From Actinomycetota bacterium (lineage in GTDB: Bacteria; Actinomycetota; Thermoleophilia; Gaiellales; Gaiellaceae), in NCBI GenBank assembly GCA_013816245.1, contig JACDEU010000001.1, positions 106,744 to 170,743 of the forward strand: a DNA stretch of 64,000 nt, read 5' to 3'. Below are positions 18,106-19,552 of this stretch, piece by piece. Below the pieces are notes generated by a model. It saw nothing but the letters and a program-made list of their open reading frames with translations. It was not told the DNA's origin and made no database searches. The first letter of the stretch is position 1. The number at the start of each line of letters is the position of its first letter. The translations under genes and the position numbers were made by a program.

Positions 18106-18133
18106 TTGCGAAGATCACAAAGTGGGCTATGCT
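18106..18133 (+). promoter_or_regulatory. Candidate promoter for the ANTAR gene
   Basis: TTGCGA, 16-nt spacer, TATGCT. Lies about 95 nt upstream of GTG 18229. Confidence 0.3.
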
Positions 18134-18228
18134 GTGCCCATTCGCGCCCGGTCGTGACCCCGTTCCCCTTCGGGCCCCAGAGCGGTTGCCTCTCGGCGCA
18201 CATCTCGCAAACGGCGAAGGGTTGGGCC

Positions 18229-18540
18229 GTGAAGGACCTGCTCGACAGGCTCGACGGTCATCCGTTGTCTGCGGAGATCTCCGCAGAGATCAGCCGGCTG
18301 ACCGTCTACGCAGATGCTCAGGAGTCAAAGGTGCGGCAGCTCCAAACCGCTCTCGACTCGCGCGTCGCGATCGAGCGTGCCAACGGAATCCTCGCCGAAC
18401 GCTTCCAGGTGGCCGTCGAGGAGGCCTTCGACTTGCTCCGTAAGGCCGCGCGCTCGAGTCGGCGGGAGCTGACACCGCTTGCGGAGGAGGTCATAAGCTC
18501 GAGCCAGACGCCCACAGAGATTGCCGCGGCGCTGCCGTGA
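18229..18540 (+). CDS. ANTAR domain protein without a sensor domain
   Basis: RVAIERANGILAERFQVAVEEAFDLLRKAARSSRRELTPLAEEV is a clear ANTAR signature. Only a short coiled-coil-like segment precedes it. GTG 18229 is the preferred start within track ORF 18106..18540. Confidence 0.75.
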   Translation: MKDLLDRLDGHPLSAEISAEISRLTVYADAQESKVRQLQTALDSRVAIERANGILAERFQVAVEEAFDLLRKAARSSRRELTPLAEEVISSSQTPTEIAAALP

Positions 18541-18762: not shown

Positions 18763-18847
18763 GCGGGCGTGGCGGAATTGGTAGACGCGCCGGGTTTAGG
18801 TCCCGGTGGAGCTTTGCTCCTTAGAGGTTCAAGTCCTCTCGCCCGCA
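18763..18847 (+). tRNA. tRNA-Leu (anticodon TAG)
   Basis: Class II tRNA: acceptor GCGGGCG/CGCCCGC, anticodon arm CCGGG-TTTAGGT-CCCGG, long variable arm, T loop TTCAAGT. Confidence 0.9.
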
Positions 18848-18852
18848 TCGTC

Positions 18853-18954
18853 GTTCGAAGTCCGGCTTGCTTCGCGAGCCATGATGACTTCGAACGCCAT
18901 TGTCCTAACGGAGAGCCGCAGCGGCGAACGCCGGCTGAGCCGGCATTCGCGGCG
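18853..18954 (+). repeat. tRNA-trailing bipartite hairpin repeat, copy A5
   Basis: Outer stem GTTCGAAGTC/GACTTCGAAC (10 bp). Inner hairpin GGCTTGC-TTC-GCGAGCC. Junction GCCATGATGA. Second hairpin GCGAACGCCGGC-TGA-GCCGGCATTCGC. It abuts the stop of the convergent gene at 18956. Confidence 0.7.
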
Positions 18955-18955
18955 A

Positions 18956-19552
18956 TCATGTTCGGGACTCAACGCCGTCCAAGAGACGCCAGTTGCCCTG
19001 GAGCGCTGCTTCAGCCGCGGCCACCAGTCGGTCTGCGTTTTCCGGTGCGGCTTTGCGAATGACTTCGGCGGATGCGGCGGCGTGTTCGTGGTCGCGCTCG
19101 GCGTGTAGCTCGAAATACTGGGTGCTCTCCGATCCCGTGCTGAAGGCGTAGTGCTCGACCAGGCCGGTGAGCTTCGTGCTGGAGACGCCGGGCTGACCCG
19201 ACTCGACGGCATAGAGAACGGCTCGTGCCTCGAGGGAATCCTCGGCTCGCCAGGCGTCGGCGCACTCCTGCGTCTGCGTCGTGGGCTCGCGATCGAGCGG
19301 GGCGTCGAGCGCGGCGGCGAAATCGTCCCAGAGCGCGATGTGGGATTTCTCCTCGGCCGCGTGCTCGGCGTCGCCTCCAATTGCGGCGGCGTCTGCGAGC
19401 GCTACGACCGCGTGCCGGTACTCGCCGGCATAGAACGCCAGCTCGTCCCGGGTCAGCTCCCCTCGCTCCCAACGAAGGTAGAACGGATGGTCGAGGACGT
19501 TCCAGCGGCGCCGGGCCTCGTCGATGCGCTCGATCAGGTTCATGCGACTCAA
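18956..19552 (-). CDS. Heme-oxygenase-like fold protein (TenA/PqqC/CADD family)
   Basis: 198-aa ORF. RWNVLDHPFYLRWERGELTRDELAFYAGEYRHAV is typical of PqqC-like iron-containing redox enzymes. Confidence 0.7.
   Translation of the reverse strand: MSRMNLIERIDEARRRWNVLDHPFYLRWERGELTRDELAFYAGEYRHAVVALADAAAIGGDAEHAAEEKSHIALWDDFAAALDAPLDREPTTQTQECADAWRAEDSLEARAVLYAVESGQPGVSSTKLTGLVEHYAFSTGSESTQYFELHAERDHEHAAASAEVIRKAAPENADRLVAAAEAALQGNWRLLDGVESRT

Follow-up and report, generated by a model that had tools for sequence, protein, structure and literature searches.

Integron attC sites have stems of free sequence in which a few conserved extrahelical bases give strand identity, and they lie in fixed orientation at the stop codon of the preceding open reading frame (ORF). 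The REP, BIME and REPIN families (Bertels and Rainey; Nunvar; Ton-Hoang; Messing) are extragenic imperfect palindromes that occur in tens to hundreds of copies, mostly at gene 3′ ends, and REPIN populations are vertically inherited and decay once the RAYT gene is lost (bioRxiv 10.1101/2021.07.10.451892). In Mycobacterium, the TRIT element has 147 copies, whose centre lies around −8 relative to the stop codon, and a factor that binds it has been proposed (Gardner et al., 2011, PMC3152330). Here we analyse a 64,000-nucleotide stretch of a Gaiellaceae genome (GenBank assembly GCA_013816245.1; hereafter the window) in which a hairpin at 18853-18895 contains a conserved, unpaired junction. We find that this junction is the conserved irregularity of the first hairpin in an ancient, vertically inherited, ~110-nt gene-end repeat that is akin to REP and TRIT and has apparently not been described before.

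Like TRIT, this repeat (~40 copies) is restricted to one clade, conserved in both sequence and structure and located at gene termini, with a hairpin that starts in coding sequence. TRIT, however, is a near-palindrome that reads mostly alike on both strands, whereas the present repeat is asymmetric, oriented and bipartite, trails one third of the tRNA genes and has an outer helix that is specific to each locus; no sequence similarity between the two was found. We regard TRIT as the closest positional analogue. The closest evolutionary analogue is the REP/REPIN-RAYT system, which shares with the repeat its extragenic, imperfectly palindromic nature and copy-number range, its preference for gene 3′ ends, its long vertical inheritance with populations that shrink or vanish, the conservation of irregularities and of a short single-stranded motif beside the hairpin, and the presence of RAYT-like genes in the genomes concerned. 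Unlike REP and REPIN, the repeat has no GTAG-type 5′ tetranucleotide, keeps a strict sense orientation and has an outer stem that can be built from local coding sequence; neither an inverted doublet nor a flanked RAYT gene was found. In logic, the nearest parallels may be attC sites and IS200/IS605 ends, with free stems plus irregularities that would be read on a folded single strand. The attC sites also resemble the repeat in their conserved structure, free stems, position behind or over a stop codon and fixed orientation, but alignment A1 of the repeat holds no R″/R′ GTTRRRY boxes, and the copies are dispersed and tRNA-linked instead of arrayed as cassettes (intI was not searched for).

On the + strand of the window the motif GCCATGATGA occurs five times, at 15727, 15839, 16949, 18878 and 63415, where shuffles predict 0.03 copies by chance. 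An earlier note on this DNA had listed the first four, and all four were confirmed and found to lie within copies of one repeat; the fifth is unrelated to it (Table 1). A coding reading of ATG ATG was ruled out, as the frame differs between copies. The 43-nt hairpin at 18853-18895 folds with an energy of −23 kcal/mol (z = −5.4) into a 10-bp outer helix, which reaches 12 bp in the family consensus, a 7-bp inner helix, whose length varies from 5 to 8 bp across copies, and a 3-nt loop. Between the two helices sits a 1 × 5 internal loop, with C on its 5′ side and AUGAU on its 3′ side. This asymmetric geometry, which the earlier note had drawn, was recovered both in the fold of the single hairpin and by RNAalifold of 22 copies taken from the whole genome, in which 28 pairs were predicted and 18 of the 28 showed double changes.

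The hairpin is the first module of a bipartite, two-hairpin repeat. A covariance model was built from the alignment of the 22 genomic copies, and with the model, instead of the motif, 44 copies of ~110 nt were retrieved from the 3.16-Mb, 66.5% G+C assembly. The order of parts is hairpin 1, a 15-25-nt linker of the GTTTCGATTCG or CTCTCCGAGAGC type, a conserved AGCCGYAGCGGC, hairpin 2 and GGCGGCG. Hairpin 1 is composed of the 12-bp outer helix, the 5′-C/3′-AUGAY loop, the G+C-rich inner helix and a UUC-type loop. In hairpin 2, a G+C-rich stem is capped by an NRA triloop and interrupted by a conserved C·A mismatch (28/49 copies); on the − strand this + strand mismatch becomes a G·U wobble, and hairpin 2 (e.g. 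18924-18950) is there an uninterrupted 12-bp helix. Rfam returned only tRNAs at the gathering score, and nothing meaningful over the repeat up to an E value of 10.

The earlier note had called the junction invariant amid varying stems, had suggested aligning all genomic copies and had raised very recent duplication as another source of its conservation. Within this genome, ATGAT is present in ~31 of the ~38 hits that bear hairpin 1, and the variants ATCAT (twice), ATGAG and ACGCT are confined to low-scoring, decaying copies. The copy at C88:52885 retains ATGAT and has AC/GT in place of TC/GA as the adjacent pair; because this flanking pair covaries, the loop comprises AUGAU, and the GA that follows it in ATGATGA belongs to the helix. 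Among relatives the claim holds for the core of the junction, with A-U-G-A near-invariant and the opposite C conserved throughout the family, but not for its edges: the fifth loop position is U or C by lineage, and the GCC triplet varies, its middle pair covarying among GGC/GCC, GCC/GGC and GUC/GAC. Counts of ATGAT to ATGAC are 27:0 in this genome and 25:0, 28:0, 26:2 and 38:~3 in close relatives; in deeper lineages they are 1:16 (G014), 0:15 (G020), 0:4 (G015) and 0:2 (G023), and 12 of the 14 other sampled genera usually have ATGAC. Either pyrimidine can fill position 5, and a given genome has almost always the same one; the clade of this genome switched from C to U, at orthologous copies as well. 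This uniformity may reflect co-evolution with a reader protein, or else C-to-T changes that arose in parallel at an exposed loop base which can be either pyrimidine.

The persistence of the junction, together with the genome-wide uniformity of position 5, would be compatible with a site that is read by a trans-acting factor, and on sequence grounds the junction is probably a protein recognition site. In this respect the recognition-site reading of the earlier note stood, since the conservation fits a trans-acting factor; the stem changes cited beside it are not good evidence for selection on RNA. Because the 1 × 5 loop and the C·A mismatch of hairpin 2 persist against a homogenising background, we infer selection on both irregularities, and this persistence is its strongest sign.

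That both helices vary while remaining paired was likewise borne out. Standard pairs make up 97.6% of stem cells (Watson-Crick pairs, 96-98%), and 240 cells with double changes compare with 6 changed on a single side; by this count, 21 of the 28 pairs have double changes. What did not survive is the use of these changes as evidence of selection on RNA. Among 1911 stem cells, 17 are G·U and 26 are A·C, so that wobble is no commoner than mismatch, a pattern unlike the one usually left when selection maintains an RNA through wobble intermediates. At orthologous loci (greA in G000 versus G005, tRNA-Phe and one on contig C49), copies with the same hairpin 2 were found to have entirely different outer helices in hairpin 1. 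The pccB gene ends in GNIPL-stop in 22 of 22 species; in those that bear the element, the 5′ arm of hairpin 1 consists of the last codons, ATC CCT TTG TGA TC, and the 3′ arm, GATCACAAAGGG, is their complement. In the other species the core, or everything but a stub, is deleted. At this pccB-like locus (C35:22500-22540; orthologues L246-L267), the rare codons CCT TTG accompany the element, and mostly CCG CTC or CCG CTG is found where it is absent, which suggests that 3′-arm pairing constrains the synonymous sites of the last pccB codons. At greA, the 3′ arm complements GCC GCG TAA AGTC in G005 and GCG GCA TAA GTC in a genome of another genus, mirroring synonymous changes of the coding 5′ arm. 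G005 (4.3 Mb, 5% contamination) has two identical greA-element loci, on contigs C10 and C11 (L235, L236), probably through strain mixture or an assembly duplicate.

The pccB and greA arms complement the last codons of the upstream gene, and the 3′ arm therefore follows local sequence. With no G·U excess, few single-side changes and a 3′ arm that copies codons, 'compensatory' changes are poor evidence for RNA selection at this repeat. We infer instead that stem complementarity is templated or corrected at the DNA level, for example by template switching in a quasi-palindrome. Whole units must also have been duplicated, since five copies at different loci form a subfamily with a common outer stem, CCGTTCGAAGTC.

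The repeat is old. Within the genus, 20 of 24 species carry it, and copy number ranges from 0 to 52. On a ValRS tree it occurs in every deep clade of the genus and the four zero-copy species are scattered, indicating that it was ancestral in the genus and was repeatedly lost. Orthologous copies are shared by species with only 65-74% ValRS identity and by other genera, by which a recent-duplicate origin of the conserved junction was ruled out. Elements of G005 and G014 fall at orthologous positions in this genome, where occupancy is high. At the tRNA-Leu(tag)/TenA-like locus, which holds the hairpin at 18853-18895, the element is present in nine species and missing from three that are free of it altogether; two of these, G011 and G017, retain short stretches there that resemble deletion remnants.

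In a class-wide search of 401 genomes, the element was detected in 26, all of them members of one Gaiellaceae-like family and spread over 15 of its ~22 sampled genera, and in none of 355 sampled genomes from other families of the class. The total comes to several hundred copies in more than 20 species and 15 genera. Other genera have the same architecture and the same sites: tRNA-Phe is followed by a copy in five genera, and other copies come after tRNA-Tyr, tRNA-Glu, tRNA-Lys and stop codons or stand 22-30 nt ahead of tRNA-Val or tRNA-Leu. Among public genome contigs, the covariance model upheld five loci, all in Actinomycetota metagenome-assembled genomes, one of which is labelled Gaiellaceae; the pattern scan behind this search was too loose, and most of the 80 loci that it listed were chance matches.

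Placement is as regular as structure. All 44 copies of this genome are intergenic or overlap a stop codon. Sixteen begin 0-2 nt past the 3′ end of a tRNA gene that does not encode CCA, which accounts for about one third of the 51 tRNA genes; ~8 terminate 16-50 nt ahead of a tRNA gene; and ~17 begin at or across the stop codon of an ORF on the same strand, as called by a codon-position G+C test. The ORFs that end in the repeat include rpoC, greA, a pccB-like carboxyltransferase, a cytochrome c and a prepilin peptidase, and in several the stop codon falls within the 5′ arm of hairpin 1. An HMG-CoA-reductase-like ORF at C98:23099-23208 has no earlier stop and would be read through hairpin 1 to a TGA inside ATGATGA. 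Nearly every copy has the orientation of its upstream gene: a single copy, the degenerate one at 16031-16144, is clearly antisense, and two weak candidates (C31 and C2:25556) could not be placed. The 12 nt past hairpin 1 contain 29-34% T, compared with 16.8% genome-wide, and some copies have a T-rich tail, CUUUCUUGUUUCG; most lack five T in eight.

Between the repeat and a following tRNA gene, −10-like boxes (TACACT or TATCCT) stand 12-14 nt ahead of the tRNA 5′ end. Since such a box directly adjoins the repeat copy, any −35 box would have to lie within the element. Boxes of the form GCTACACT or GCTATCCT were seen directly behind repeats at ~15930-15952 of the window and on C16, C7 and C120 and at C42:196145. 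C7 (1569-2228) holds a tandem array with a period of ~175 nt, each unit of which combines a repeat copy and a TACACT box with the 5′ half of tRNA-Leu(gag); it finishes with an intact tRNA-Leu(gag), followed by a copy without the core, in which a plain outer-stem hairpin precedes hairpin 2.

Table 1. Positions in the window of the repeat copies and their junction, of adjoining tRNA genes and of the unrelated fifth motif
Feature	Position	Strand	Basis	Context
tRNA-Arg(tct)	15622..15695	+	ARAGORN, Rfam	CCA not encoded; repeat copy immediately 3′
Full copy (hairpin 1, linker, hairpin 2)	15696..15808	+	Covariance model, 91 bits (C42:122439-122551)	0 nt past tRNA-Arg(tct); junction ATGAT 15730-15734; fold of −67 kcal/mol that includes the 1 × 5 loop
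Tandem second copy, hairpin 2 truncated	15808..15902	+	Covariance model, 45 bits (C42:122551-122645)	Junction ATGAT 15842-15846; tRNA-His begins ~50 nt beyond the end
Degenerate inverted copy	16031..16144	−	Covariance model, 37.5 bits (C42:122774-122887); repeat D7	Hairpin 2 intact; junction shrunk to TAT
Weak remnant, hairpin 2 only	16723..16808	+	Covariance model, 28 bits (C42:123466-123551)	16 nt between its end and tRNA-Arg(tcg)
tRNA-Arg(tcg)	16824..16895	+	ARAGORN, Rfam	Repeat copy 3′
Duplicated 5′ half-site TTGAAGTCCGGCCC	16903..16919	+	Sequence reading	Abuts the start of the next full copy
Full copy	16920..17030	+	Covariance model, 102 bits (C42:123663-123773)	24 nt past tRNA-Arg(tcg); junction ATGAT 16952-16956
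Fragment: 3′ arm of hairpin 1 (GAGGACTTCGAACG), linker, decayed hairpin 2	17136..17194	+	Repeats D8 and D11; below covariance-model threshold	
tRNA-Leu(tag)	18763..18847	+	ARAGORN, Rfam	Repeat copy 3′
Full copy containing hairpin 18853-18895	18849..18958	+	Covariance model, 101.6 bits (C42:125592-125701)	1 nt past tRNA-Leu(tag); fills the spacer to the TenA-like gene
Unpaired C, 5′ side of internal loop	18863..18863	+	Fold; column invariant in alignment A1	
Unpaired AUGAU, 3′ side of internal loop	18881..18885	+	Fold, RNAalifold, cross-genome comparison	
Fifth GCCATGATGA	63415..63424	+		Coding (A-M-M-T) in a GGDEF-type gene (GGEEF diguanylate-cyclase motif); unrelated to the repeat

The copies of the window (Table 1) range from full units to remnants. 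Half-sites duplicated in the manner of TTGAAGTCCGGCCC also occur on C111, C45 and C67 and in G014. The copy at 18849..18958 occupies the entire spacer between tRNA-Leu(tag) and a convergent gene that a Pfam scan of the neighbours identified as TenA-like, and the stop codon of that gene overlaps the final bases of the copy. Just upstream of the same tRNA gene, at 18106-18540, lies a gene for a small protein with little beyond an ANTAR domain (PF03861, 1.3e-16); as a partner of the repeat it was ruled out, not being conserved at the tRNA-Leu locus in 14 relatives. The last 31 nt of tRNA-His (15998-16028) are repeated 148 nt downstream, at 16146-16176, and the spacer is the inverted copy 16031-16144. 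This duplication looks like a rearrangement at a tRNA that involved the repeat and not like a classical integrase scar.

What might such an element do? The reading that we favour, with a probability of about 0.5 from what the genomes themselves offer, is that the repeat acts in cis where transcripts end and that its loop is read by a protein. The sense-oriented repeat behind tRNAs and stop codons (rpoC, greA and pccB among them) would act in cis as a hairpin of the terminator or insulator type, often with the −10 box of the next tRNA gene directly behind it. The asymmetric loop would be recognised by a trans-acting protein on the folded single strand, whether RNA or DNA. DNA-level templating would keep the helices complementary, with the 3′ arm copied from whatever lies 5′ of the core, last codons included; the stems could then vary freely while the loop does not, because the helices are rewritten by this templating. 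The reading is supported by a stable, G+C-rich hairpin in sense orientation at gene 3′ ends. Several observations weigh against it. The canonical U-tract is absent from most copies, and these are not called by a generic terminator scan. If transcription ended past hairpin 1, the conservation of hairpin 2 would be unexplained, and the missing tolerance of G·U argues against pure selection on RNA. Finally, the copy-number span within one genus includes genome-wide loss in at least four lineages; the element is thus dispensable, which would fit a selfish repeat equally well.

Such a repeat would resemble REP or REPIN: an HUH Y1 transposase of the RAYT-like kind would read irregularities of the folded single-stranded DNA (the C/ATGAY loop and the C·A mismatch) and copy or maintain the elements, gene ends would be where insertion is tolerated, and any effect on RNA would be incidental. 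We consider this possible, if on the unlikely side. The genome has five RAYT-like genes (NF047646, 84 and 68 bits), and across the species of the genus copy number tends to rise with that of Y1 genes (Spearman 0.61, p = 0.001). The pair of RAYT clades B2 and B3 is represented in 10 of 10 genomes that have 26 or more copies and missing from all four zero-copy genomes, although this grouping is post hoc (p = 4e-4) and the two clades are paralogues. Perfect Watson-Crick stems without a G·U excess are in keeping with such an origin, as are the half-site duplications, tandem array and truncated copies, the booms and collapses of copy number between species and the five-copy subfamily. Yet among 73 RAYT loci (the gene ± 700 nt) the covariance model found no flanking copy, with one copy 1.8 kb away in G001, and in G000 the nearest copy to a RAYT-like gene is at 2.7 kb; no REPtron arrangement was found. 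Genomes free of the element still have one to three RAYT-like genes, and at the family level the link with the repeat is not upheld: such genes occur in 24 of 25 genomes that bear the element, the remaining one having none, and in 14 of 20 that do not. Near-total sense orientation and the sharing of sites across genera would not be expected of a merely tolerated repeat, and in place of an inverted doublet of a single REP the element has two different hairpins in direct order, hairpin 1 being asymmetric. The five RAYT-like paralogues of this genome lie on C66, C28, C25, C19 and C33; about nine clades exist across the genus, most of them kept in species without the repeat, and RAYT-like paralogues may serve other repeat families.

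Placement and loop have a different precedent in RNA processing. RNase III signals of phage T7 have asymmetric loops, and in T7 signals such as R1.1 the enzyme cuts once, within the loop, so that a protective hairpin stays at the 3′ end; RNase E prefers A/U-rich single strands. The repeat resembles the T7 signals in its helix of about two turns, its asymmetric internal loop and its location at the ends of transcription units, and differs from them in a shorter upper helix (5-8 bp) and a DNA-type conservation of the stem. It could accordingly be imagined as a ~20-bp interrupted helix that an RNase III- or RNase E-like endoribonuclease cuts once in AUGAY, freeing the tRNA or leaving the mRNA with a protective 3′ hairpin. 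The position of the element, in sense and immediately 3′ of CCA-less tRNA genes and of mRNAs, would suit this proposal, and so would a 12 + 7-bp helix with an asymmetric loop, which is of substrate size, and a loop that is the sole conserved unpaired stretch. Against these stand the lack of G·U tolerance, an element that is dispensable in several species with otherwise the same tRNA genes, and a hairpin 2 left unexplained, and we find such a signal unlikely. A slightly more doubtful proposal takes the templating itself as the function: a self-templating hairpin of a new kind, whose core C-GNC...GNC-AUGAY recruits a factor or exploits template switching while the 3′ arm is copied from upstream sequence, host codons included. 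Were that so, these would be portable gene-end hairpins with the recognition loop as their sole fixed part, and the pyrimidine that nearly all copies of a genome share at loop position 5 would record co-evolution with the factor. Far less credible than any of these is a box C/D-like kink-turn (K-turn) ribonucleoprotein with AUGAUGA as a box C bound by an L7Ae-type protein, an idea that the earlier note had raised while finding no matching box D or K-turn. The heptamer fits RUGAUGA in this genome and clade, and a model of an archaeal C/D small RNA gives a weak match at chance level (sR17, 14 bits, E = 6.6). The absence of a box D was corroborated: the opposite strand reads AAGUC-C-GGC, with no CUGA or G·A partner and no GA before the inner helix. 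In addition, the GA forms Watson-Crick pairs with UC that covary, being GU/AC in C88:52885, and the form commonest in the family, AUGACGA (12 of 14 other genera and the deeper lineages within the genus), departs from RUGAUGA. A search for L7Ae-family genes (PF01248) was negative in 13 genomes of the genus and detected the family in seven control genomes that have it. Only the heptamer AUGAUGA is common to this repeat and a box C/D K-turn; the box D, the sheared G·A pairs, the 3-nt bulge and L7Ae are lacking here.

Gaiellaceae-like actinobacteria abound in soil and have hardly been cultured, and we know of nothing that has been established about how their transcription units end. In many genera the repeat marks about one third of the tRNA genes together with core genes such as rpoC and greA, and could serve as an annotation landmark for gene ends in this group. 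It also cautions that 'compensatory' stem changes alone are no proof of a functional RNA. A five-base loop that has stayed fixed over family-level divergence amid stems that appear to be rewritten amounts to a natural experiment, and one that points to a structure-specific nucleic-acid-binding protein.

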